The translations under genes and the position numbers were made by a program. This document shows, one piece after another, positions 1 through 24,429 of a stretch of DNA of 41,265 nucleotides. The stretch lies in the IMG/VR virus record IMGVR_UViG_2521172717_000006; one strand, 5' to 3'. Source of the DNA: a virus. Its lineage: Duplodnaviria; Heunggongvirae; Uroviricota; Caudoviricetes. The notes beneath the pieces were generated by a model. That model had not been told where the DNA came from, ran no database searches, and worked only from the letters and a program-made list of their open reading frames with translations. Position 1 is the first letter of the stretch. Every line of letters begins with the position of its first letter.

Positions 1-1158
1 ATGCTCACCGTTAAGCAGATTGAAGCAGCAAAGCCGAAAGAAAAACCATACCGCCTACTCGATGGTAATGGACTGTACCTTTATGTCCCTGTGTCAGGGA
101 AAAAGGTATGGCAGCTTCGCTACAAGATTGACGGTAAGGAGAAAATCCTGACCGTAGGAAAATACCCGCTTATGACTTTGCAAGAGGCAAGGGATAAAGC
201 ATGGACTGCGAGGAAAGACATCTCGGTCGGAATCGATCCGGTAAAAGCGAAAAAGGCTTCGTCTAACAACAATTCCTTTAGCGCCATTTACAAGGAATGG
301 TACGAGCACAAGAAGCAAGTCTGGTCTGTAGGGTATGCGACTGAACTTGCCAAAATGTTTGACGACGACATTTTACCTATCATTGGCGGCCTTGAAATTC
401 AGGATATTGAGCCGATGCAACTGCTGGAAGTAATCCGCAGGTTTGAAGATCGCGGTGCAATGGAGCGAGCCAACAAAGCCCGCAGAAGATGCGGCGAGGT
501 TTTCCGTTACGCTATTGTCACTGGTAGGGCTAAATATAACCCGGCACCTGACCTTGCTGACGCCATGAAGGGATACCGCAAGAAGAACTTCCCGTTTTTA
601 CCTGCCGACCAGATCCCGGCATTCAACAAAGCACTTGCAACATTTTCAGGAAGTATCGTATCGCTCATTGCGACCAAAGTTTTACGCTACACAGCCCTAA
701 GAACGAAAGAGCTTCGTTCCATGCAATGGAAGAACGTCGATTTTGAAAACAGGATTATCACCATCGACGCCAGTGTGATGAAGGGACGCAAAATTCATGT
801 TGTCCCGATGTCAGACCAGGTGGTTGAACTTCTCACTACGCTAAGCTCAATCACTAAACCAGTATCAGAGTTTGTTTTTGCCGGGCGAAACGATAAGAAA
901 AAGCCAATCTGCGAGAACGCGGTATTGCTTGTGATCAAACAAATCGGCTATGAGGGTCTGGAAAGCGGTCACGGATTCAGGCATGAATTCAGCACGATTA
1001 TGAACGAGCACGAATGGCCTGCTGACGCTATTGAAGTGCAACTTGCACATGCCAACGGCGGATCTGTGCGCGGGATTTACAACCATGCTCAGTATCTAGA
1101 TAAGCGCAGAGAAATGATGCAGTGGTGGGCTGACTGGATTGATGAAAAGGTGGAGTGA
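1..1158 (+). CDS. intS: Tyrosine site-specific integrase (P4/IntS-type), 385 aa
   Basis: N-terminal MLTVKQIEAAKPKEKPYRLLDGNGLYLYV typical of P4-family integrases; C-terminal R...HxxR...Y catalytic motifs (HGFRHEF, RGIYNHAQY) present; ORF begins at window position 1. Confidence 0.9.
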   Translation: MLTVKQIEAAKPKEKPYRLLDGNGLYLYVPVSGKKVWQLRYKIDGKEKILTVGKYPLMTLQEARDKAWTARKDISVGIDPVKAKKASSNNNSFSAIYKEWYEHKKQVWSVGYATELAKMFDDDILPIIGGLEIQDIEPMQLLEVIRRFEDRGAMERANKARRRCGEVFRYAIVTGRAKYNPAPDLADAMKGYRKKNFPFLPADQIPAFNKALATFSGSIVSLIATKVLRYTALRTKELRSMQWKNVDFENRIITIDASVMKGRKIHVVPMSDQVVELLTTLSSITKPVSEFVFAGRNDKKKPICENAVLLVIKQIGYEGLESGHGFRHEFSTIMNEHEWPADAIEVQLAHANGGSVRGIYNHAQYLDKRREMMQWWADWIDEKVE

Positions 1159-1391: not shown

Positions 1392-2531
1392 ATGGTGTGC
1401 ATTATGATCTTTGAGGCGCAAAGTCTTTATTTATATTTTTTGTCTCTTTTAGCCGTTGTGTTATGTATTACACTATTGACACGATATAACTATTTTTCTC
1501 ACATCAACTTTGCAAGTAACAGGTATTTCTTTATAGACGGATTGCGTGGGATAGCTGCGTTCAGCGTTCTTATTAATCACGGCGCTCATACAATTATTAC
1601 CAATGGAGTTCAGCCCATATTTATAGACTTCACAAAATACTCCATCACAGGGAATATGGGTAGCTTCGGTGTACAGATTTTCTTTTGCATTACAGGATTT
1701 TTGTTCTTTGATAAATTAATAAAAGGAAATAATACATTTGACTGGAATAAATTTTATGTTGCTCGGATAAAAAGACTCGTTCCTCTATATATGCTTACTG
1801 CGCTTTTGGTGGCAATTTTAGCTATTATATTATCCGGCAGTTCAGCAAGGCTTAACTTTGTTGATTTTTCAAGCTTCCTAAATTTTTTTGGGTTTGGATT
1901 TTTGGGCACAGAAATCTTCATTGGCTCTTTTAACGCATCAGGATTAAATGCGGTGATATGGACTCTACCGTATGAATGGAGGTTTTATTTAATTTTCCCT
2001 CTATTATCGATTGCCATCGCAAGCAAGAGATATGGTATGTTTGCCATTTCCGCAGTAATGTTACTTGCGGCAAGAGACTTTATGACAGAATTTGTTTTGT
2101 GGCCATATTTTATAGTTGGCGCCTTAGGTGCATATATATTCAATAAATCTTATGTTAACATTGATGATAAATATTGGATATTCTCATTCATTTCTTTCAT
2201 AGCTATTTTTGTTATCTTCTGCTCTTCCGCAGACAGCTATGGACGAATCAGATTTGCATGCATTTCATTACTATTTATAATGGTACTTATAACTAAACCA
2301 AAAATATTTAAAATAAAATCATTAGTTTATTTAGGTGAGGCAAGTTATAGTCTTTATTTGCTGCATTTGCCTATCATGGCTATAGTAATGAGAACAATAA
2401 ATAATTTCTATAACCTATCGAGCATGTCTACTGTGAATTACACAATTTTGATAGCCTTTATTGCATCTCTGTGTAGCGTTATTTCCTGTATCTGTTTTAA
2501 GAATTTTGAGTGGAGATTCATTAAAAAGTAA
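1392..2531 (+). CDS. Acyltransferase family 3 integral membrane protein, O-antigen acetyltransferase-like (serotype-conversion candidate)
   Basis: FIDGLRGIAAFSVLINH motif near N-terminus typical of acyltransferase_3; multi-pass hydrophobic profile; visibly AT-rich codon usage; track ORF starts at TTG 1377, first ATG is 1392 (1404 also possible). Confidence 0.8.
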   Translation: MVCIMIFEAQSLYLYFLSLLAVVLCITLLTRYNYFSHINFASNRYFFIDGLRGIAAFSVLINHGAHTIITNGVQPIFIDFTKYSITGNMGSFGVQIFFCITGFLFFDKLIKGNNTFDWNKFYVARIKRLVPLYMLTALLVAILAIILSGSSARLNFVDFSSFLNFFGFGFLGTEIFIGSFNASGLNAVIWTLPYEWRFYLIFPLLSIAIASKRYGMFAISAVMLLAARDFMTEFVLWPYFIVGALGAYIFNKSYVNIDDKYWIFSFISFIAIFVIFCSSADSYGRIRFACISLLFIMVLITKPKIFKIKSLVYLGEASYSLYLLHLPIMAIVMRTINNFYNLSSMSTVNYTILIAFIASLCSVISCICFKNFEWRFIKK

Positions 2532-2535
2532 CATT

Positions 2536-2553
2536 GCGGGGCGATGGCCCCGC
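2536..2553. terminator. Bidirectional hairpin terminator between convergent acyltransferase and tailspike genes
   Basis: GCGGGGC-gatg-GCCCCGC stem-loop with T-rich flank on both strands. Confidence 0.55.
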
Positions 2554-2563
2554 TTGATTTCCG

Positions 2564-4762
2564 CTACGCTATATTAAGATTACCATATGTATTGTTTCCA
2601 AGACCATACCATGCCCAGTTTGTTCCTGATGCAGGAGTACCTGCATTGTGAATCATATCGCCTATATTTATCAGCACTTTCCCAGGGTATGTTGTAGTAG
2701 GAGCAGTGTCTATTCCAGCAGACACATCGGCAAAACGCCAACCACAGGAAACCATATCTGCGTTATCTCTAAATTTCTTAATTGAAAACGTGTATCTGTT
2801 TCCTCTATATATCATTCCAGCAAAACTAGGCCAGTCAATAAGTTGATTTACTGGTGAGTTTAAAGTGTTACTAAACTCATTATTTTCAATAACTGGTTCA
2901 TCGATACGCACACCCGAAGTTGATACTAGATATGTAGAATCAAAGTCGTTGTCAGAAATAATTGGAGCATAACCACCAATTTCACAACCTGTATTGCCAT
3001 GAACAAAATATGACTTATTCCCTCGGTATATAGATTTTCTCCATGTGGGCATTGTTACTTTTACGGCATCAGTTCTATCAAACTGGTTGTTTTCAATCAC
3101 AAGTCCATAACAATATGCAGACATCTGAGTTTCAGCATAATCATTTATGGCATAACCACCGCCTTTAAATGTATTTTTTGTTATTTTAATTCCATTGAAT
3201 GATGTTGAGTAGTCATTACTACCATTCCAGATAATTAGAATATGAGATGAAAATGTGCCATCCTCGTTCTGATCCCCAATGCTTATATTGCTATCAATAA
3301 CAACATTCTGCGCTGCAACACCGTTAGATTCACCTCCTATCTCAACGAATATTCCTTGTCCTGTTTTGATGTTATTCGATATAACTGCACCACCAGTCAC
3401 CCCCCAAGGAGTAATCCTAGACTGAATACTTATAGGGCTTATAAAGTGATTTCTTTCTGCAATTAAATATTTTGTTCTTGCTGAGCACGCAAAATCTTCA
3501 CCAAAAGTATGCCATTTTCTGCCTGTTCTGTACGTTTGGCAGTCAATCATCTTAGCAATTCCATTAAGATTTTTAGTGAAAAATGTATAATTTGTTACCA
3601 AATCAGTCCTTACATTGCTAAGAGTTATATCCTCATTTGGTATAGCACCGTCACCATCAGCATCTGCCATTACAAAGATTCTTGCAGCCAATACGTCAAT
3701 ATCATTAATAGATCCACTACTCCCCTCAAGTGCGAAACCAAACCAATTCTCTTGAGGGGTAAACGTGGTATCTGAAGGTCCAGTTGAAAAATTTGTGCAT
3801 GACTGGTTTAACTTTATACCATTAAATTTAAAGTTTTTGCAGTTGAATAAACCAAAGCAAACACGCTCAGCCTCACCATTTCCATCTGTATTTATATTTA
3901 CATCATTATCTGCGTAAACAAATAAATTATTTTTACCATTAATTACAATTGCTGTTTTACGTATAACACCTGCAGAGTCATGATATTGCTGGCTGATTTG
4001 GTAATTAAACTTTATCTCACCGGCGCTAAAACGTATTGCTCTAACACCACCAAATTTTGATATACAAGCGTTAACCGATGCCGTTGAATCATGCACTCCG
4101 TTAATATCATGTCCAGCCCAAACTGTATGTATGCCATCGAGCACACAATTCGAACGGATCCAGCAACCAGAGCCACCACCATCACTCTCACCAGTTCCCG
4201 CAAGGAAAGCAGCGAGCTCAGCATACGAACCATCCCACGGAACTGTGGGGCTAAATATGGTGATACCGTTGTGCTGAGATTTAGGCATGCTGGCATCCCA
4301 GTAAAACTGCCCGCCGCCAAAGTTGGTTCCTGGTACGTATCCAATTACATTTAATGTGTGATTCCCAGCAGGCTCGCTCATTAAGGTATGGATGTCAGGA
4401 ACATTCTCCATTCGCTGGCTAAACTGATCGGGATCATACTTCAGCACATTGGGAAAATAGAACTGCTGCGAACCATACGCATCATATACAGCCATGGAAT
4501 GGCCTTGCACAGTTACGAACTTGGCAATCTGTCCGTTATATACCGGATATCCGGCAGCGTTAATGATTATTGGTTGCGAAACAGGAACGTGAGAGCCGTC
4601 TTCGTTCTCTATATAAACCTGAATCTGGTTTTCTGAATTTACGGGGTCAGCGTCAATTTTACCGATATAAATTTTGCCATTGGCTACGGCTTTAAAAGAA
4701 CGAGCCATAGTGAAGAGTTGCGAAGGCATGCTTACCACAACATTTGCGGTGATATCTGACAT
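2564..4762 (-). CDS. Tailspike protein: P22/HK620-type N-terminal head-binding domain plus divergent beta-helix receptor-binding domain
   Basis: N-terminus [42 protein letters not shown]...[10 protein letters not shown] matches remembered P22 gp9/HK620 tailspike head-binding domain; remainder Gly/Asn/Ser/Thr-rich; start taken at internal ATG (M17 of track ORF) with GGAG RBS. Confidence 0.9.
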
Positions 4763-4883
4763 TTCATTGCTCCAGACGAATGATATGATGCAACCATGAT
4801 GTGATTGCATACCGAAATGGTACTATTGAGTATTTATCCAGTAGGTTACGATGCCATTCCACCCAACTGGTGAGGCATCAAGG

Positions 4884-5144
4884 ATGTACAGCAAATACGA
4901 CGAGGCGCAGTTTCACTTGAGACTTCCGCATGAACTCCACGCGAAAATTAAGCAGCGTGCGAAGATGAATAACAGGTCGCTGAACTCAGAGATAATTGCA
5001 GCGATTGAAGAATCATTGGCTAAACAAAGCTCTGCATCTGTTTACATTGACGATGCAGAGCGTATGGCAGAACAACAATCTGATATGGTTAAGAAAATTG
5101 TCTTTGATACGCTCAAAGAGCTATATAAAAAAGACAGCAGCTAA
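4884..5144 (+). CDS. mnt: Mnt-like ribbon-helix-helix repressor
   Basis: FHLRLPHELHAKIKQRAKMNNRSLNSEIIAAIEESL and C-terminal AERMAEQQSDMVKKIVFDTLKELYKK resemble P22 Mnt from memory; start chosen at M12 of track ORF. Confidence 0.75.
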   Translation: MYSKYDEAQFHLRLPHELHAKIKQRAKMNNRSLNSEIIAAIEESLAKQSSASVYIDDAERMAEQQSDMVKKIVFDTLKELYKKDSS

Positions 5145-5164
5145 CCATCAGTTACGGAGGATTT

Positions 5165-5242
5165 ATGCAAAGAGATATGCTGAATATTGCGTTCTACATA
5201 TTTGGTTTTTGCACGTTCCTGGTGTTTGCGAAGCTATTCTGA
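5165..5242 (+). CDS. Candidate 25-aa hydrophobic peptide (MQRDMLNIAFYIFGFCTFLVFAKLF)
   Basis: ATG preceded by GGAGG about 4 nt upstream; single predicted TM helix; not in ORF track (too short); overlaps 3' end of ejection protein gene convergently. Confidence 0.3.
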   Translation: MQRDMLNIAFYIFGFCTFLVFAKLF

Positions 5243-7231
5243 CAATGCATCAGACTTGGCACCCTGAGTCAGGGCGTTAATGGCCTTTTGCGCCTGCTGC
5301 ATGGCTTTCTCAAACGCTGTTGATCCGCGTGGTGTGTTTGCCATTCGGAGCATTGCATTTCTGAATGGCTCGCTCTCATAGGCGCGAGTAAGAAGTCCGT
5401 AGCTTACCGCTGCGCCAGTTGTCGCCGGGTTCATTGCCGTCCCATACCCGATAATGAAAGGGATGGTTTGCTGCCCTGTTGGTGTTGTTACTGCCGCTTT
5501 TGCAGCCTGCTGCGTGGATTGCAGGTAGTTTTTCAATCCTTTCAGATAAGCGGCTTCCTGACCTTTAAATGTAATGCCAGTCTGGTTTTGCAGGATGTTA
5601 AGCTGCCGAAGGAACTGGTCAGGGGATCCGCCAGATTTCTCCATCGCCTTTCCAATGATGCCATTGCGCATTTGCGCCCTGCCAACACGACCAACTGAGT
5701 TATACAGCGTCTTAATTTCCGATTTGTTCTTGCTGAATAGCATGTTGTTGACAACTTCCGGCGTCAGGTCGCCTTTCATGAGAACATTCTTCAGCCTGGT
5801 ATTCTTTAGTTTCGCCGCTTCGTCAGCGTAGACGGCATTGGCCTGCTGATATTTACGGAGAGTATCGTTGCCAAGATTCTGACCAATGGCACCATTGATA
5901 TCGTCGGTCATCGCCTTGTAAACTCGCTGAATGGCAGCATCGGAACGGTTTGGTAACACTGGTCGCTCACCCTTCACGTCCATTCTGAACTGGCTGCGCA
6001 GATCGCTTAATTGCTTCAAATCCAGATTGACCGGACCATCAGGACCAGCATTGCGAACGAGCTCATCACGATATGACTGAAGTTTTGAAATAGTCTCGTT
6101 ATCAGCAACCTTACCAAGCTTCTGCAGGTTAGATATTTCTGTATCAATCTGCTGAATTGCTCGCGCAGGCTGAATGTTTACTCCAGCCATAGCATTCTGA
6201 ACCTGCTCCAGTCGATTACCGGCGGCACGACGAATTCCTGATGTTTTCGCTTTAAGGCTGTCAATAACAACCGCTGGATCATACTCACCGAATTTATCAG
6301 CAAATCTCTGAACCAACTGGCTTCTCGCTTCCTGTTGCGTTGCTCTCATTCCGCTTGTGCCAGCCAGGGGGATATTTTCCGCTGTCGTCTGCGCCATTTT
6401 CCCGACGCGGGAAGTGGGTTGTAACAGGTCTGTGGTGTGCAGAGGAACTCCTTCACGCTCTGCAAATCTGATAGCCTGCTGCGCTTCTGGCGCAATAGCA
6501 CCACGAACGCCACGATAAGCAGCACCTAATCCACGTCCGGCAGCGTTAATAGCACCGCCAGCCAGCACACCAACGCCTAAATCGGTGGCGAGTGCTTCCG
6601 CATCATCTTTCGCACTATTTGCAGCAAGTGATCCAACTGTGTTTTCAGCGAGAAGGCGAGTTGCCCCCTGAGCAATTCGACCAGCAAGTGTTGGTGCCTG
6701 TGCTGACGCTCTCTCAATGCCAGCAGGAGTGAGGTAAGGCAATGCCTCAGCAAATACCATGCCCTCTGTAGTTTGTGGAGTCAGCGCGCCTTTCTGAAGG
6801 CCAAAGTCCTGCTCTAATCCCTGCGTTGTTACTCGTGGCGCTGGTTGATATGTCCCATCGCCAATTCCGAGTTTACCGCCAGCCCAAGCCGCCGCGCTTG
6901 TTACAGCATCTGCAACTGATGCAGGTATGTTTGCCACGTTCACGCCCGCCTGCACCAGTCCGCGACCAGTCTCTTTTACTGCTTCACCAAGATCAGACAT
7001 AAATCCACTTTGCTGTGGTTGTTGCTGTGCTACTGGTTGCTGTGTCTCCACTGGCTGCACAGATGGCAATGGATAGGCAGCATAGAAAGCTTGCTTAGCC
7101 TGCTCTGCATTTTCTCCGGCTTGCGGGGCCACGACTTCATTGAAGTATTGCTCCTGAGCCTGCGCTTTTTGTTCTGGTGCTAACGCCTGATACTGTGGAG
7201 AGGCGATAACATCTTTCCATGCTTTAGCCAT
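5234..7231 (-). CDS. Ejection (injection) protein, P22 gp16-like
   Basis: Position last in the gp7-gp20-gp16 ejection protein series; Ala/Gln-rich 665-aa protein; stop of upstream gene overlaps start (TAATG). Confidence 0.8.
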   Translation of the reverse strand: MAKAWKDVIASPQYQALAPEQKAQAQEQYFNEVVAPQAGENAEQAKQAFYAAYPLPSVQPVETQQPVAQQQPQQSGFMSDLGEAVKETGRGLVQAGVNVANIPASVADAVTSAAAWAGGKLGIGDGTYQPAPRVTTQGLEQDFGLQKGALTPQTTEGMVFAEALPYLTPAGIERASAQAPTLAGRIAQGATRLLAENTVGSLAANSAKDDAEALATDLGVGVLAGGAINAAGRGLGAAYRGVRGAIAPEAQQAIRFAEREGVPLHTTDLLQPTSRVGKMAQTTAENIPLAGTSGMRATQQEARSQLVQRFADKFGEYDPAVVIDSLKAKTSGIRRAAGNRLEQVQNAMAGVNIQPARAIQQIDTEISNLQKLGKVADNETISKLQSYRDELVRNAGPDGPVNLDLKQLSDLRSQFRMDVKGERPVLPNRSDAAIQRVYKAMTDDINGAIGQNLGNDTLRKYQQANAVYADEAAKLKNTRLKNVLMKGDLTPEVVNNMLFSKNKSEIKTLYNSVGRVGRAQMRNGIIGKAMEKSGGSPDQFLRQLNILQNQTGITFKGQEAAYLKGLKNYLQSTQQAAKAAVTTPTGQQTIPFIIGYGTAMNPATTGAAVSYGLLTRAYESEPFRNAMLRMANTPRGSTAFEKAMQQAQKAINALTQGAKSDALSE

Positions 7232-8619
7232 TAATCACCCCATAGTGAAGAAAAATTACTGCTGGCTGCTGGCTGTGATACCTGTGCAGGTTGAGATTGC
7301 TTCCGCTGTGATTTACCAACATTAACGTTATATTGTTGGTTGTAATTGTTTGTGTATTCCTGAATCTCACGAATCGACTGCTGCATAGCCTCCGGGCTTG
7401 AATAGTCAACCTGCGGCATCCCCTGAAAATACATCTTCGCTTCTGCAACGGTGTTAATACCACTGGCACCCATGTCCCTTGCTGCCGCCACGCCCTGATT
7501 CTGCATTCTTCCCTGAATACGTTGTGCTGAGTTATATAACTGGCGCTGCTCTTTTCCTGTTAATCGGCTGCGAACATCAGCACCAATTGCTGGATTACCT
7601 GCACCGCCTGTCATTCCTGTCATGAAATCGAGAGCAGAAGCGTCTGCATTTGCGATCGCGTCGATATCCTTCTTCATGGCATAGTTTTGTGCTGATGCAG
7701 ACGATGTTGCAGGCGCTGCGATTGAACTGGCAGGAACGCGAACCATATTCCCCTCGTTGTCGATGCCTTCGTAGAACGCATTAGCCCCAGCGCCATGAAG
7801 CTTCCCGCCGACAGTTACAGTTCTGCCATCTGATAACTGAACTGTACGCTCATCATTCCCAGCAGTTCCTCTTGTTGACGATCGCTGCATTGCCAAATCC
7901 TGACCGCGTCGTGCAGTAGAAGCAGATAAATCCTGACCGCGCATCGTGATGTTCTGACCACGCGCTGTTAGTGCTTCTCCAGCCTGATTGCTGCGGATTG
8001 TCTCTGCAAGTTTTCCGCGGTCAATCTCACGACCAACGATTCTGTCCTGAACATTGAAGTAGTCAATCGGACCGAGAGCAGCCATCCCAAGGTGATCAAC
8101 AAACTCACCAAATCCTGAAGGATTATGCTGATACATCTGAGCAACGTTGTTAGGGTCAACGCCGACGCGCGCCAGTTCCTTGGCGTTGTTTTGCAGCCAT
8201 GATTGCATTGCTTCTGGAGACGATGACGCAAGGTGTGCGCCAGCCGCTAAGGTGCCGATAGAATTACGCTGCTCTTCATCAATGAATCCCATGCCTTTAC
8301 GAACGGATTCAATCTGGTCTGGATATTGAGTAGCCAACTGACGCAAAGCACCGCGATCACCAGACGCATAAGCATTAGCGTATGCCTGCTGAAATTCTTT
8401 CTGCCGCTGAGCCTGCTTTTCCTGCTGAAACACCCCCGCAATACCTGAAAGGCCTTGCAAAGCAGTCAGCCCAACATTGTTAGCGCCTGAACGCTCAATA
8501 TCATTGTTCTGCCTGATAAGCTGAAGCGTATTGCCGATGTCATTTACGCTCGGAGCGTTTGAGTTGACGCCACCGATACCAGCCAACAATCCGCCGTTTG
8601 TTCCTTGCCAAGTAGCCAT
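7231..8619 (-). CDS. Ejection protein, P22 gp20-like
   Basis: 462 aa, synteny between gp7-like and gp16-like genes. Confidence 0.8.
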
Positions 8620-8628
8620 GATTACCCC

Positions 8629-9321
8629 TTAAAACAACGAGCCAAGCAATCCGATACCAGCACCAATGCCAGCGCCCCAAGGCGTTGATGTTCCCAAAAG
8701 GCTGGCAAGACCTGCACCGGCAATCGCACCAGACGTGCCACCGCTAATTGCAGTCTGAAGACTTGATGGTTTATTGGCATTAGCAGCGGCAAGTGCTGCA
8801 CTTTGCTGTGCAATGCTGCTCATGTTGTTGGCGTATGTCTGCCCAGCGTTTGCCTGACCTTGCAGCGCACCAAGCCCAACGTTTGCCAGATTATTGTAAT
8901 TGCTCATCTGGTTTGATAACCACGACTGACCGAGAGTCGGAGCAATCGTAGCCAGTTGATTGCTTGTAGCTGTCGAACCAAGTCCGCCAGTCGCCTCCGC
9001 AGCAGCAAGACTCTGGTAACGAGCCTGACCTGCAAGGTCTTTATACTGCTGAGAGTTGTAATACTGATTAAGTGCCTGCCCCTGACCTTCTAAACTGGAA
9101 AGGTTCTGAAGCTGGTTAACATACTGCTCCGCAAGAGGCGTGAACGGAGCAAGGTTTTTCATGATCGTCTGCCACTGCTGATTTTGCAGGTCTGCGGCAT
9201 ACTTCTGAGCTTCTGCTGCATACTTTGCGCTTTTATCAGAACTGCCACCTTTCCCGCCTTTTTCAGGGCAATAAGGTTCCTCACCGCGCAGTTTTCTGCC
9301 CAGTTTAAATGCATATAACAT
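8629..9321 (-). CDS. Ejection protein, P22 gp7-like
   Basis: N-terminus MLYAFKLGRKLRGEEPYCPEKGGKGGSS matches remembered P22 gp7; Gly/Ala/Ser/Gln-rich C-terminus. Confidence 0.85.
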   Translation of the reverse strand: MLYAFKLGRKLRGEEPYCPEKGGKGGSSDKSAKYAAEAQKYAADLQNQQWQTIMKNLAPFTPLAEQYVNQLQNLSSLEGQGQALNQYYNSQQYKDLAGQARYQSLAAAEATGGLGSTATSNQLATIAPTLGQSWLSNQMSNYNNLANVGLGALQGQANAGQTYANNMSSIAQQSAALAAANANKPSSLQTAISGGTSGAIAGAGLASLLGTSTPWGAGIGAGIGLLGSLF

Positions 9322-9323
9322 GG

Positions 9324-9779
9324 CTATCTCCCGTGATTCAGGAAGTCGATTAGTTCTTCGCGTGTGGCGCTGTAAAACGTCACGTCATCCACGCCTTTGA
9401 AGTATTTCTTGATGGTTCCTACTCGCTTAAGGCCAATCATTGCGCAGTACATCTGACCGTGGCGGAATTTGCGCGCAGCGAACGATGTGACGCACTGAAC
9501 GGTGGTGTTAGTCAGAATGTATCGCCAGAACGCCATCCCGATTTCCTTGCTGAATCCACGAACCTCTGGCAGGTACATGGCGTGGCAATCGAATGTCAGC
9601 GGCTGAATCTCCTGATAGTAAACAATGCCGCCAAACTGACCGTGCACGTTCACCTCAAAGTAACGGCATTCAGGCTTGTAGTCGTATCCATCACCGTTGT
9701 TGCTTCCGGCAATAATGTCAGGGTGATTTCCGACTGCTTCTATCAGGTCGATGTTTCGCGTTGGTTTGAACTGAATCAT
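9324..9779 (-). CDS. P22 gp14-like head-associated protein
   Basis: Synteny between tail needle and gp7 genes; track start is GTG, ATG one codon in; overlaps upstream stop (ATGA). Confidence 0.6.
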   Translation of the reverse strand: MIQFKPTRNIDLIEAVGNHPDIIAGSNNGDGYDYKPECRYFEVNVHGQFGGIVYYQEIQPLTFDCHAMYLPEVRGFSKEIGMAFWRYILTNTTVQCVTSFAARKFRHGQMYCAMIGLKRVGTIKKYFKGVDDVTFYSATREELIDFLNHGR

Positions 9780-10627
9780 CACTGCTCCGCGATTATCTTG
9801 ATGGTTGTGGCAGTAAACGCCGCACCATTTGACTGGATGGTTAACGTACTGCCATTTGTGGCAAGAAAGCCGTCTTTATCCACGCTGAAAAACGTAGCTA
9901 ACAGGATGTTATCGGTTGTTGTCGCTGCATTACGACTGCTGACCAACGTGTCAGGAACAGAGCCGGAAAAGGTTAGCTGCATTGACCTGTTGGCGGTTCC
10001 GCTGGGCCACGTCCCGACGATCGACAGCTTGAAGAACAAGGTTTTGTTCTCGTTGAACACAACCATCTTGTTGTTAACAGTGTCGAAGAATGGTGCCAAC
10101 GTCCCAGATGACGGCGTGAGCGTTTTCAGCAGGATAACAAGGTTGGTCGGCGCTGTCGGGATGGTTACAGATACGCCAGAGTAAACAACCTCTGACTTCT
10201 TGCGAGTAGTGGCATACTCCAGAGCATCAATGCGCGATTCATGGTCTGAAACCTGCGATTCCAGCGACTGAACTCTGGTATCAAGCGACGCAATATCGCT
10301 TTCATTCTGAGCGATTCGCGTTTCATGTTCCTGGAGAGTTGATTCTGCCTGGCTGATTCGCTCCTCATGATTAACAAGCGTTGCTTCCGCAGCAGAAATT
10401 CGCTGCTCATGGTCAGCGAGAATCACATCCTGCTCATCGTTCCTGACCTGTGCATCATAAGCGCCCTGTCCGGCCTCGTTGGCCTTGTTAGCCACGTTAC
10501 CAACATCAGTGCTCTGTGCGATAACGTAAAGCAGATACGACTGCGAGAAGATATTGCGTGGAAGGACTGATGTGTCGAGCCGTGTAGCCTGAATGATTAC
10601 CGGCACATTGAGATTCGAATCCGCCAT
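9779..10627 (-). CDS. Tail needle protein (P22 gp26-like) with extended C-terminal knob
   Basis: N-terminus [38 protein letters not shown] matches P22 gp26; heptad coiled-coil middle; 282 aa suggests Sf6/HK620-type knob. Confidence 0.85.
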
Positions 10628-12821: not shown

Positions 12822-14117
12822 TCACGCAGTCTGGTTAGGCAGACCAACACCAATTGCCTCTGGTCGTACAGCACATGCTGAATACCACACAGCAATACGG
12901 CACTTACCAGACAGGGTGTTGATATCTCCCTGCGTTGCGAAGATGCCGTTAACACCAATACCAGGAATGCTGAAGGAAGACGTTTTCATGCCAGCAAACA
13001 GTTCATGGGTTACCGGGATCGGCTGAGACAGCAGACGGATTGAGTCATCAGCCCAGAACACGTTAGCGGTGGTTGTTGCCACGTTCAGAACGTTTACCGG
13101 AGTGGTATCAGCAAGAGAGGTGTTTACGTTAGCGTAAGCCTTCTCTTCTTTTGTCAGTGAAGCGTCATCAAGCGCAATCGGCTTCGGCGTGATTTCTATG
13201 TGAGTACCATCGATCACACGGGTGATTGAGAAAGTAGCATCATCAGTCAGCACGTTCTTCGCCATCTGAGACAGGAATTTCACACCAGTGAAGCTGATTT
13301 TGTCGCCGCGCTTAAATCCGGTGGTTGAGGATACGGTCACCGTTGCAACACGGTTGTCGACGTTCTCTTTGTTACCATCGGTATCAAGGGTGTATGCCTG
13401 CGGCTTAAACTTCTGCGCACCAGAAACAGTTACACCAGTAGCGGTTGACTTGGTAACTGCCGGAAGTTTCGGTGAGCGAAGAATTTCATCAAAGCCAGCA
13501 ATCTGACGCTGAATAGTACCGTTACGATACGCTTCTTCAGGAACGCGCCCAAAGATGTCACCATCTACCAGGTTGCGGCCTGCTTTGCGGTAATCGTCAG
13601 GGTTCAGGAAGTAACTGATTCCCATGTCGCGGTTGAGTTCGCGGGAGAACATCAGTCGCTCTGCATCAGACACAAAATCCCAGCCAGACAGGCCAGTAGA
13701 TGGACCAATTGCGCGGGTATCGTGAACAACAAGTGAGCCCATTTCGGTTGCCTGTTTGGCAATTGCTGACTCAATGTTATTCGCCAATTTTTTGGCGGAT
13801 GCCTGGATGCGGCGACGGTAAGAACGCTCATCACGCAGGTCATCTGCACGAAGCTCGAAGAAATCGTTATCCGGATCGCCCATGTTGCATTTCACGGAGA
13901 GTTCCAGAATCCCGGTTGCTTTGCCAGTTAAATCCCAGCCAGTCTGGGTTGGCGCTTCCTGCTCAACAGGCATCCACACGGTGTTGCTTGAACGCTGCAT
14001 GGATTCTGCCGGAGGGGTGTATTTTGTCACTTTGGACGCCATTGGCGTCAGGTTCTGGACGGTTTCGATGATTTCATCCAGAGCATACGTGACCAGTTGA
14101 CCTTCATTTAATGCCAT
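12822..14117 (-). CDS. Major coat protein (P22 gp5-like)
   Basis: [54 protein letters not shown] closely matches remembered P22 coat; 431 aa. Confidence 0.95.
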
Positions 14118-19252: not shown

Positions 19253-19495
19253 TTACGCTCCGGTAGTGAACAGGTCTAACGATTCCTTCGATTTACGCAC
19301 CGCTTCGATAGTGCGGGTCGTGATATCCGAATTAGCGCCGCCTGACTGGAAGTGAATTTTGAATAGCTCAAGCTTCAGCTCGTCAGTACCAATGAACTGA
19401 AATGCTTCCTCTGCGGCTGCGTTCTGGTTCATGACCAGTTTGTAAATCTCTAACTGGAATTTCTGTTCTTCAGTCATGGGAATAATCTCTGCCAT
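19253..19495 (-). CDS. Hypothetical protein, 80 aa
   Basis: ATG with GGAG RBS; lies between moron gene and terminase small subunit. Confidence 0.5.
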   Translation of the reverse strand: MAEIIPMTEEQKFQLEIYKLVMNQNAAAEEAFQFIGTDELKLELFKIHFQSGGANSDITTRTIEAVRKSKESLDLFTTGA

Positions 19496-19743: not shown

Positions 19744-20229
19744 TTATTTCAGTTCGTTACCAGGCATTTCTTTTAGCTCTTTCAAATGACAACGATTGAG
19801 ACTAAACCACTCCCCGTGCGACCTATAGTTGTAATATTTTTGGTGCAATTTGGTTTCAAGCTCTCTATCGGCCGGAATCTTTGCAATTAGATTTAGCTTC
19901 CCACCACTCATGCGAGATATCTCTGAAATCCGTTTATTAACCCTGCGACTAAACCCTATTTTTGTTAGCCCACTATCTTCAGCATGCAGAACGTACACAT
20001 ATGATTTTTGCGAAGCACTGGGTGCGACTTTGTTGTAATTAATCATGTCAAACATGAAGCCTTGCTTTAGCAAAGTTTCAAAAAAGATAGAATTAACACA
20101 CCCATTCCTTCTCAGCTCTGCACTTAGCTTGTCAATTTCCTCTATGATGTCGCCAGACCCCTTTCCACTTATAAGAAAATCTTGGTACATGCGACCAATT
20201 CTTGAGGTAATTTCAACAAAGTTATTCAT
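19744..20229 (-). CDS. T5orf172 (GIY-YIG-like) domain protein with unknown N-terminal domain; moron
   Basis: C-terminal half YVYVLHAEDSGLTKIGFSRRVNKRISEISRM...LETKLHQKYYNYRSHGEWFSL fits the T5orf172 pattern (YVY...KIG...R...E..LH...R...GEWF); AAGG RBS; AT-rich; occupies lambda bor-position after Rz. Confidence 0.7.
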   Translation of the reverse strand: MNNFVEITSRIGRMYQDFLISGKGSGDIIEEIDKLSAELRRNGCVNSIFFETLLKQGFMFDMINYNKVAPSASQKSYVYVLHAEDSGLTKIGFSRRVNKRISEISRMSGGKLNLIAKIPADRELETKLHQKYYNYRSHGEWFSLNRCHLKELKEMPGNELK

Positions 20230-23421: not shown

Positions 23422-23708
23422 GGCTTAATCTTCCCCTCCTTCAGCAGTATCGCCTGCGTCCTGATCACGCCTTCCAGGTGGTAAAGTCTGGCGTCTTTGT
23501 TGTCGAGGTTATGGGTGCGTCGGTCGATTTCATCGTGACACGCGCTACAAGCCCATGCGCCGATCAGGTCGTCAGGTTTCATTCCCGTTCCGCAAATTCC
23601 AGCCATCCGGTAATGTGCCAGAACTGTAGTTTCAGGGTTGCCATTGCATACGCCGTAAATACGTACCTGGCATTCTCTGCCGCGTGCTTCTTTGCGTAGG
23701 TTAGCCAT
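23418..23708 (-). CDS. ybcO: YbcO-like (DUF1364) Cys-rich protein
   Basis: 96 aa with RGRECQVRIYGVCNGNPET...CSACHDEIDRR; position between antirepressor and rusA as in DLP12-type nin regions. Confidence 0.6.
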   Translation of the reverse strand: MANLRKEARGRECQVRIYGVCNGNPETTVLAHYRMAGICGTGMKPDDLIGAWACSACHDEIDRRTHNLDNKDARLYHLEGVIRTQAILLKEGKIKP

Positions 23709-24429
23709 TAAGCAGCCTCCCCGGTTACTTTCAGCATTCCGTTATCGAGCAGCTTTCTGGTCAGCCACTGTTGACCACGCCCGGTGATTTTTGTGGTGAA
23801 CGATATCTGTATTCCGTGATTTGTGTTGACCGCTGTTTCTTTCACTGTGAAATAGCCGCGATCCATATATTCCTGCATTGGCACATTGCGCCGGGAACCT
23901 GAAGCAATAAGGATTTTGTGATCGCGCATCCACGCAAACAGTTTGTTTGGACCAATACCAACAACCTTTGCAAAGTTTCCAATCAAAATTCCGCTGGCCT
24001 CGCCAACGCGATCGGCAAACTCAACTTTAGGTGCGGCAATTGCGAGCTGGTTTTCCAGTTGCATTTTCTGCTCAGCAAGATCAGCAGCAAGGCGCAACGC
24101 TTCCGGTAACGTTTTGGGATATTAACCGCAGTTTCTTCAAGCTCTCGCCAACGGTCAACAAGACGAGCGGTGAACTCTGGCGACAACTGGGCAACAACGA
24201 CAATACTGTCTCGCTTACCTTGTTCGCCCTCGAAGACGTAATGCTCGTACTGAACACTGAACCCTAAGTTATTGATTCTTTCGGAAACCTCAATTTGAGG
24301 AAGCCGGATAACACCATTTTTAGCCAGCGTTTCGATGGTACGTTTCACATTGTCATGACGCTTACCCACCAACTCAGCGATTTCAATGCTTGTCATTTTG
24401 ATGGCATTGCCATTTATTAACTCATTCAT
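23708..24429 (-). pseudogene. Rha / KilA-C antirepressor-like gene interrupted by a frameshift (two overlapping frames)
   Basis: N-terminal Rha domain ORF (24429 down to 23983) and C-terminal KilA-C-like ORF (from about 24120 down to 23708) overlap by about 115 nt in different frames; switch point lies in a CCCAAAAC run near 24113..24124; second frame has no ATG (track start is TTG). Confidence 0.55.

Follow-up and report, generated by a model that had tools for sequence, protein, structure and literature searches.

A lone mnt homologue that diverges from the tailspike gene in a P22-like prophage, with its predicted operator and its specificity class

The Mnt and Arc repressors are textbook models of DNA recognition by a beta-sheet, and the immI region is a model of antirepressor control. 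In phage P22 this region is composed of mnt, the overlapping promoters Pmnt and Pant with the operators Oarc and Omnt, arc, sar, ant and a terminator, which are followed by gene 9; the layout agrees with the original prediction, which had described immI as mnt plus arc-ant. The interval between genes 16 and 9 has been named the 'ant moron', and it contains only mnt in ST64T, ST104 and Para1 (Villafane et al. 2008, PMC2629481). The mnt-only arrangement has also been described for phage L (PMC8022706), next to the reports on ST64T and ST104 (PMC2629481). Because the literature records it in ST64T, ST104, Para1 and phage L, the arrangement is already known. Phage BTP1 is without any immI. The mnt genes that occur without ant in many P22-like phages are viewed as either remnants or genes with a new function (PMC2629481, PMC8022706). 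The literature that we searched contains no binding, transcription, phenotype or transcription-start data for a tailspike-linked or orphan Mnt.

Here we analyzed a stretch of DNA of 41,265 nucleotides (the window), which as a whole is a P22-like (Lederbergvirus-type) prophage of E. coli W. A 701-bp query across the tailspike-mnt-gene 16 junction (4600-5300) was 100% identical to E. coli W NC_017635.1; the E. coli W locus at the extrapolated coordinates has equal length and its RefSeq genes match the ORFs of the window. The first genes are intS (1-1158, plus strand) and a gene of the O-antigen acyltransferase family (1404-2531, plus strand). They are followed by the tailspike gene (2564-4762, minus strand, 732 aa), which was recognized from the RefSeq annotation and from the Pfam family Head_binding. 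The N-terminal head-binding domain is conserved (residues 1-113, 6.7e-66), and the Pfam search gave no match for the receptor-binding part of the protein. The tailspike start codon is the ATG at 4762-4760, preceded by a Shine-Dalgarno sequence GGAG (complement of 4770-4773). The mnt homologue (4884-5144, plus strand) encodes 86 aa. On its far side lies the last late gene ahead of the cassette, which encodes a gene 16-type DNA-ejection protein (5234-7231, minus strand) according to its annotation and its synteny with gene 13 of Sf6 and gene 16 of P22. The ejection-protein, head and terminase genes beyond mnt are all on the minus strand.

The mnt and tailspike genes are divergent and their start codons are 121 bp apart (4763-4883), in agreement with the RefSeq coordinates of E. 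coli W and with the distance of about 120 bp given by the original prediction. Phage Sf6 lacks mnt, and in a comparison with it the cassette shows up as a clean indel of 385 bp (4779-5163). The window fits a mnt-only 'ant moron', with the gene order 16, mnt, 9 and an insert that contains neither arc nor ant; many P22-like phages have this cassette in the interval from gene 16 to gene 9.

The identity of the 86-aa product is clear from searches of Pfam and the PDB. It matched the Pfam families Arc (PF03869; 7.5e-15, residues 7-49) and Repressor_Mnt (PF11423; 3.4e-14, residues 57-82), and the PDB entries 1mnt (Mnt N-domain; 3.4e-19, residues 6-79) and 1qey (Mnt tetramerisation domain; 1.7e-8). 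These matches settle the Mnt fold and confirm that a Mnt-like ribbon-helix-helix gene is present: the sequence has an Arc-like ribbon-helix-helix N-domain, with the recognition strand AQFHLRL, and a C-terminal Mnt tetramerisation helix. The identity to P22 Mnt is 48.8%. The protein would act as a dimer of ribbon-helix-helix dimers joined by the Mnt C-terminal helix. The RefSeq entry (WP_000287053.1) is labeled 'Arc family DNA-binding protein'. The homologue in phage Sf101, gp14, is annotated as 'partition protein ATPase / chromosome segregation ATPase', a propagated error that is corrected here, and the homologue in IME10 is unannotated. The Sf101 paper does not discuss gp14. A longer ORF could start at the upstream ATG at 4851. 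Use of this start is unlikely since the codon overlaps the inferred -10 element of the mnt promoter, the Shine-Dalgarno sequence GAGG (4872-4875) serves the ATG at 4884, and the upstream ATG in the class of L and Gally runs into a stop.

Neither arc nor ant was detected. A tblastn search of the whole window with Arc from P22, Kapi1 and L130 and with Ant from P22 returned no significant match, as expected from the original prediction of a mnt gene without these partners. The sole near-match was weak (E 0.12); it falls within an antirepressor-like KilAC pseudogene of the nin region (23708-24429), which carries a frameshift. This pseudogene was ruled out as a distal target of Mnt, as it has no operator nearby. 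The window has no counterpart of the arc-ant junction in which P22 encodes sar, and an Rfam search found no RNA family in the window. Compared with a P22-type immI, the window thus lacks arc and ant divergent from mnt, a strong Pant, and sar. The Mnt of the window would control no antirepressor in cis.

The 121-bp spacer was compared with the corresponding spacers of P22, epsilon34, L, Gally, VSe13 and JEP4, which were aligned with mnt reading rightward. In P22 the annotated operator Omnt, AGGTCCACGGTGGACCT, abuts the motif ATTGAG, the -35 region of Pmnt. The sequence at the same position is AGACCAC-N-GTGGTCT in L and Gally, and in the window it is ATACCGAAATGGTAC (4809-4823), which reads ATACC-GAAAT-GGTAC with the core TACC-N5-GGTA and, like P22 Omnt, lies directly upstream of the conserved ATTGAG. 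The sites of P22, L/Gally and the window share the geometry xxxCC-N5-GGxxx. We therefore predict that ATACCGAAATGGTAC is the Mnt operator. The candidate site is self-complementary at 8 of 15 positions, i.e. its symmetry is partial, and its centre is 54 bp from the tailspike ATG and about 43 bp upstream of the inferred start of mnt transcription.

Next we asked how widely this pairing of protein and site holds. The Mnt proteins of P22, L, Gally and the window, as well as the operator pattern, served as queries to fetch loci, of which 254 remained once identical ones had been removed. Three features were used to class each mnt: the recognition strand in its N-terminal part, the gene that diverges from it, and the sequence found at the site of the operator. 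This analysis gave three types. The P22 type has the strand PHFNFRM, arc as neighbour in 69/69 loci and the arms GGTCC..GGACC. The L type has PQFNLR[LI], the tailspike gene as neighbour in 60/60 loci and the arms [AC]GACC..GGTCT. The window type has A[QK]FHLRL and the arms ATACC..GGTAC; its neighbour is the tailspike gene in 116/116 loci and arc in none. The exclusive linkage to the tailspike gene could also be the inheritance of one ancestral junction instead of a functional coupling. Recognition strand, operator arms and neighbour gene thus map one-to-one across the 254 non-identical loci. The specificity of Arc and Mnt is attributed to N-terminal residues in the work of Knight & Sauer (1989), as it is cited in PMC3413123. 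This correspondence gives good grounds to regard 4809-4823 as the putative cognate operator of the window Mnt.

The variation within the classes is in line with this assignment. In the window class the arms are invariant in 113/118 loci, a figure that partly reflects the 96-100% overall identity of the region among close relatives; two loci have an arm change, and otherwise only the central 5 bp vary. All four bases occur at the central position of the L class, which is what one expects of a centre that is not contacted. The site ATACC-N5-GGTAC also accompanies the Mnt of the JEP4/VSe13 type, which has only 63-68% overall identity to the window protein; the N-domain is common to both, and the distal spacer and the C-terminal helix differ.

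The window, Sf101 and phage L each have a single copy of their respective predicted operator. A search for a second site with up to 3 mismatches, as would be found in a regulon, gave no match in phage L, and the matches in the window and Sf101 were at chance level. A bare TACC-N5-GGTA in the coat gene (13095) looks fortuitous. We also scanned IMG/VR for the operator pattern beside any neighbour. All matches that are linked to P22-like genes adjoin the tailspike gene; the other 67 have no P22-like genes nearby and belong to unrelated contigs. Five IMG/VR loci with two operator copies 515 bp apart were rejected as candidates, because they represent a repeated intergenic element in a different type of phage and not antirepressor genes.

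These scans bear on the idea that Mnt from the prophage acts in trans, silencing the antirepressor promoter of superinfecting relatives and so preventing induction. Such trans-immunity is the classical function of immI in P22 (PMC2629481, PMC8022706). The mntB of phage CUS-3 is of the P22 type, and no operator of that type lies within 7.2 kb of it; this hints at a Mnt that works only in trans, and trans-acting Mnt genes may therefore exist in general. However, arc or ant stands at the operator in 0/176 non-identical loci of the window type or L type, and together with the IMG/VR scan this means that no target population was found for a trans-acting Mnt of this specificity. We consider this explanation very improbable.

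The cassette is not rare. The operator together with mnt was found in 255 of 5,426 complete E. coli genomes (4.7%) and the whole 701-bp junction in 134. IMG/VR yielded 228 relatives. The junction of IME10 is 94.8% identical, and mnt is divergent from the tailspike gene, with other alleles, in phages L, ST160, Gally, VSe13 and JEP4. In some relatives a window-type mnt beside the tailspike gene coexists with a complete arc-ant module; the fact that both are present indicates that the tailspike-linked mnt is not redundant with immI.

The mnt gene is under purifying selection. The pN/pS ratio is 0.14 for the full-length gene (52 distinct 86-aa alleles) and 0.11 for the N-domain, with a pS of 0.31 (50 alleles), and the ORF is intact in 130/132 loci. 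These values argue strongly against a decaying relic. The original prediction had offered a relic of an immI deletion as one explanation for the lone gene, and a non-functional remnant that drifts to loss would agree with the missing arc, ant and Pant; the possibility was raised for phage L by Zaworski et al. (PMC8022706). The low pN/pS at a pS of up to 0.31 and the intact ORFs speak against a recent or decaying truncation, as do the operator-like site, whose arms are conserved and change together with the recognition strand, and the presence of the cassette in 4.7% of complete E. coli genomes. The comparison with relatives that was proposed as a check was negative for an intact mnt-arc-ant cluster in close relatives: all 116 non-identical loci with the same recognition strand adjoin the tailspike gene and none has arc. 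We find the relic explanation hardly credible. Taken together the comparative data favour a function, in that there appear to be two old, selected specificity classes with co-varying operators which lie beside the tailspike gene and never beside arc. The tailspike-adjacent lineage would be old and stably inherited, with a DNA specificity unlike that of P22 Mnt.

A repressor in this position could act on its own gene, on the tailspike gene or on both. By positional homology to P22 Pmnt, which is annotated as TTGAGA-17-TATCAT, the mnt promoter of the window would consist of the -35 element TTGAGT (4826-4831) and the -10 element TACGAT (4847-4852) with a 15-bp spacer (4826-4852, plus strand). It is a weak match to the consensus, and a simple scan misses it because of the short spacer. 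The poor consensus and the 15-bp spacer make the mode of mnt transcription uncertain. An alternative extended -10 element, TGGTACTAT (4818-4826), overlaps the predicted operator and is not conserved in the other classes. The mRNA leader is predicted to fold a stem from CACC (4860-4863) and GGTG (4869-4872), followed by the Shine-Dalgarno sequence GAGG (4860-4875 in all, plus strand). P22 has CACT/AGTG and L has CACTT/AAGTG as counterparts of this stem; in the window the fold energy alone is not significant. We propose that Mnt binds ATACCGAAATGGTAC at 4809-4823 and regulates its own weak promoter.

Another inverted repeat in the spacer is a 23-bp palindrome, ATGCAACCA-N5-TGATTGCAT (4788-4810, minus strand), which is unique in the window, lies in the tailspike leader and overlaps the predicted operator by two bases. 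It was rejected as the Mnt operator for several reasons. The palindrome is missing from a 136-bp variant of the spacer that has the same DNA-binding domain; its arms, TGCAA/TTGCA, are also found upstream of the tailspike gene of Sf6, which has no mnt; and it pairs better as minus-strand RNA. In IME10 and others a C4794T variant makes the palindrome perfect; with the base of the window, a G.U pair can form in the minus-strand RNA only. The repeat is probably an RNA stem-loop of the late/tailspike transcript and not a Mnt site, with a folding z of -1.4 that is not significant. The z values of the two window hairpins are -1.4 and 0.1, neither of them significant, and the tailspike leaders of L and Sf6 reach significant values of -3.3 and -3.6.

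An unannotated ORF of 25 hydrophobic residues, MQRDMLNIAFYIFGFCTFLVFAKLF (5165-5242, plus strand), starts 20 bp 3' of mnt with the Shine-Dalgarno sequence GGAGG (5156-5160). The ORF is conserved in Sf6, Gally and 110 fetched loci, with 6/3/12 variable sites at codon positions 1/2/3. It lies directly downstream of mnt in 67/117 window-type loci and is absent in 47. No terminator is predicted between the two genes, and for this reason they may be co-transcribed. An operon or a toxin-antitoxin pair of mnt and the 25-aa ORF was rejected, because the ORF follows the gene 16 allele and not mnt. A type II pair needs an obligately linked toxin; the 25-aa peptide matches no family and is also present in Sf6, which lacks mnt.

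Repression of the tailspike gene or of late read-through had been suggested by the original prediction. One form of this idea assumes that the 121-bp spacer contains a tailspike promoter of its own that Mnt represses, a surviving Pant that became fused to gene 9; in P22 gene 9 is located downstream of Pant and ant. On the minus strand a residual Pant-homologous match, ATGGCA-17-AATACT (4857-4829), would indeed start transcription at the operator. However, its agreement with the consensus at 8/12 positions is no better than chance (shuffled mean 7.9), and neither the 136-bp variant of the window Mnt class nor the L class conserves it. In arc-linked loci Pant, with 11/12 consensus positions on the arc-directed strand, is present in 61/62 cases. 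On the tailspike-directed strand the best sigma-70 score out of 12 is 7.9 for the window type and 7.4 for the L type, against 7.9 for shuffled spacers. A promoter scan found no minus-strand promoter near the cassette, and scans for consensus promoters and terminators over 2400-7400 gave nothing above chance there.

Furthermore, in about 1/6 of the loci the operator is separated from the true tailspike start by an insert of 290-650 bp, either a homing-endonuclease gene of the HNH/AP2 type or an AT-rich sequence of about 290 bp. A precise geometry between operator and tailspike gene is therefore not required. Since the P22-type Pant has been lost, classical repression of a tailspike promoter by Mnt is not supported; the leftward sigma-70 score, the comparison with the Pant of the P22-type loci and the tolerated inserts give the proposed repression of the tailspike gene no support. 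A dedicated tailspike promoter under Mnt control seems improbable.

The reading that we prefer is that the orphan Mnt is a functional repressor in an autoregulated cassette with one operator, and that it belongs to an old and stable lineage and is not a recent truncation. Judged from the sequence comparisons, this is on balance probable, if only by a modest degree. Since a gene that only regulates itself has no obvious selective value, some selected output must exist. Late transcription offers a candidate. To reach the tailspike gene it has to cross mnt in antisense, and the transcripts meet the predicted operator 46 bp ahead of the tailspike start codon. For the stretch from gene 16 to the tailspike gene (5234 to 4762), the scans gave no predicted terminator on the minus strand. 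Our preferred guess for the output, and the most speculative step of the mechanism, is that operator-bound Mnt and the outward-firing mnt promoter modulate or insulate the transcription that crosses the gene 16-tailspike junction.

In its stronger version this idea states that a Mnt roadblock and polymerases that fire outward from Pmnt and meet late transcription head-on together set how much transcription from the late or ant operon reaches the tailspike gene. Such control of read-through may tune the dose of tailspike or silence the tailspike gene in the lysogen. In its favour are the antisense course of late transcription over mnt without a predicted terminator, the invariant linkage of L-type and window-type Mnt to the tailspike gene, and the place of the cassette between an antirepressor operon and the tailspike gene in L130, JEP4 and VSe13. 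Antiterminated late polymerases are expected to resist roadblocks, which counts against it. So does the fact that Sf6 and HK620 manage without mnt, and phage L has a terminator at the junction, meaning that the architecture is not uniform. An effect of the P22 ant moron and its repressors on read-through into gene 9 has been proposed before (Villafane et al., PMC2629481). On these data read-through control is possible but rather unlikely.

The same caution applies to a broader proposal, namely that the tailspike-adjacent Mnt proteins of the window type and of the L/ST64T type form a functional class apart from immI Mnt, which gates transcription into the tailspike gene. We regard it as tentative and doubtful. 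If it were true, roadblock and convergent promoter would insulate gene 9 from non-late transcription or set the tailspike dose, and antirepressor control would play no part. It would also explain why these genes persist under purifying selection both without ant and beside complete ant modules.

New in this analysis are the predicted operator, the one-to-one mapping of the classes, the purifying selection on mnt, the absence of Pant and the lack of a tailspike-directed promoter score above chance. The three classes provide natural pairs of recognition strand and operator, PHFNFRM-GGTCCAC, PQFNLRL-AGACCAC and AQFHLRL-[A/G]TACC, for work on the specificity of ribbon-helix-helix proteins. The role of the orphan Mnt becomes a small and directly testable question in tractable hosts, either in E. 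coli W or with phage L or ST64T in Salmonella.

Compared with the described systems, the locus shares with P22 the two-domain protein, composed of an Arc-like ribbon-helix-helix domain and a Mnt tetramerisation helix, and the slot between gene 16 and gene 9. It differs from P22 immI in that arc, ant, sar, Oarc and Pant are missing and the tailspike gene is the divergent neighbour. The specificity is also different: P22 Mnt combines PHFNFRM with GGTCC/GGACC and the window Mnt combines AQFHLRL with ATACC/GGTAC. With P22 Arc the window protein shares the fold and the 4-N5-4 geometry of the operator (TAGA-N5-TCTA in the case of Arc), and its strand, of the form QF(H/N)LR(L/W)P, is nearer to that of Arc (PQFNLRWP) than to that of P22 Mnt. 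In contrast, Arc has 53 aa, lacks the C-terminal tetramerisation helix and is co-transcribed with ant.

The closest described relatives are phages with the same or a similar cassette. Sf101 gp14 and the IME10 homologue are 97.7-98.8% identical to the window Mnt (Sf101 98.8%) and lie in the same cassette. The 121-bp intergenic region of Sf101 is identical to that of the window; Sf101 differs in the allele of gene 16 and in the absence of the 25-aa ORF. JEP4, VSe13 and L130-like phages (CUS-3-related) share the N-domain, the operator ATACC-N5-GGTAC and the place beside the tailspike gene. They differ in the C-terminal helix, with the overall identity of 63-68%, and they have separate upstream antirepressor modules (arc-ant, or Rha/KilA with a c2-like repressor) that are convergent with mnt.

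The mnt-only ant morons of L, ST64T and ST104, and also of ST160/SE1 and Gally, likewise contain a lone mnt divergent from the tailspike gene. In this group the distance to the tailspike gene is 135-147 bp, the operator is retained and Pant has degenerated. This group differs from the window in its specificity (PQFNLRL with AGACCAC-N-GTGGTCT), in its protein sequence (about 49-59% identity) and in its tailspike leader; phage L, unlike the window, has a bidirectional terminator after mnt. The orphan Mnt cassette of the window hence represents a different specificity class within an arrangement that has been described before, and not a new kind of system.

The tailspike leader contains a 23-bp palindrome (window 4788-4810), the arms of which are also present in Sf6. 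The C4794T polymorphism within it preserves pairing solely in the tailspike-sense RNA (G.U versus A-U). The leader hairpins of phage L (z -3.3) and Sf6 (z -3.6) are stronger than this palindrome. The mnt leader has its own inner stem, CACC/GGTG, within window 4850-4879; P22 has CACT/AGTG at the equivalent place and L has CACTT/AAGTG, a pattern suggestive of compensatory change. The window and L classes have in common an outer inverted repeat, GATGCC/GGCATC (4850-4855 and 4874-4879), and its arms enclose the -10 element and the Shine-Dalgarno sequence.

A second exact copy of the operator core TACC-N5-GGTA, TACCGGAGTGGTA, is located inside the coat protein gene (13095-13107). Since its centre and flanks are unlike those of the predicted Mnt operator, this copy is probably a chance occurrence. 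The sole antirepressor-like sequence in the prophage is a frameshifted pseudogene with a KilAC domain in the nin region (23708-24429, minus strand), and no predicted Mnt operator was found near it.

CUS-3-related phages have multiple ribbon-helix-helix repressors (7309-10417 in the related locus L130; 3211-3740 in CUS-3 itself). They carry a tandem of mntA, with recognition strand PQVNLRL, and a second Mnt-like gene, which is divergent from arc-ant; L130 additionally has a KilAC-like gene, together with an mnt of the window type that adjoins the tailspike gene. The recognition strand of CUS-3 mntB is that of P22, and there is no P22-type operator within 7.2 kb of this gene. In RefSeq and PHROGs, Mnt homologues are named 'partition protein ATPase' or 'chromosome segregation ATPase', a misnomer that conceals them; examples are Sf101 (NC_027398.1, 14284-14577), P22 mnt (NC_002371.2) and phrog_795. 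The homologue in IME10 has no annotation at all.

The head-binding domain of the tailspike is 87-100% conserved across loci and the remainder is freely swapped; the receptor-binding part in the window (residues ~120-732; 2564-4400, minus strand) has no Pfam match. Three relatives (L014, ~2255-2880; L063; L044) carry an HNH/AP2-type homing-endonuclease gene on the mnt strand exactly at the tailspike 5' end, at a point corresponding to window 4762/4763. This insertion has left the first five tailspike codons as a duplicated stub beside an intact 121-bp spacer. At the same point JEP4, the related locus L069 and about 20 L-type loci have an AT-rich insert of ~290 bp. A GIY-YIG nuclease gene, possibly a further case of homing-endonuclease insertion, lies between the lysis and DNA-packaging genes of the window (19744-20229, minus strand), where Sf101 has a Rha-like regulator instead. 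The nuclease gene is separated from that of the terminase small subunit by a small DUF2560 gene (19253-19495).

Downstream of mnt is an unannotated ORF for 25 hydrophobic residues, MQRDMLNIAFYIFGFCTFLVFAKLF (5165-5242, plus strand), which is preceded by a strong Shine-Dalgarno sequence, GGAGG (5156-5160), and overlaps the 3' terminus of gene 16, which is encoded on the opposite strand. The ORF has no PHROG match; Sf6 and Gally keep it, as do 110 retrieved loci, and its variation is in excess at third codon positions (6/3/12 for positions 1/2/3). The product may be a small membrane peptide or serve in exclusion. In the window this ORF sits in the slot that sieA occupies in P22.
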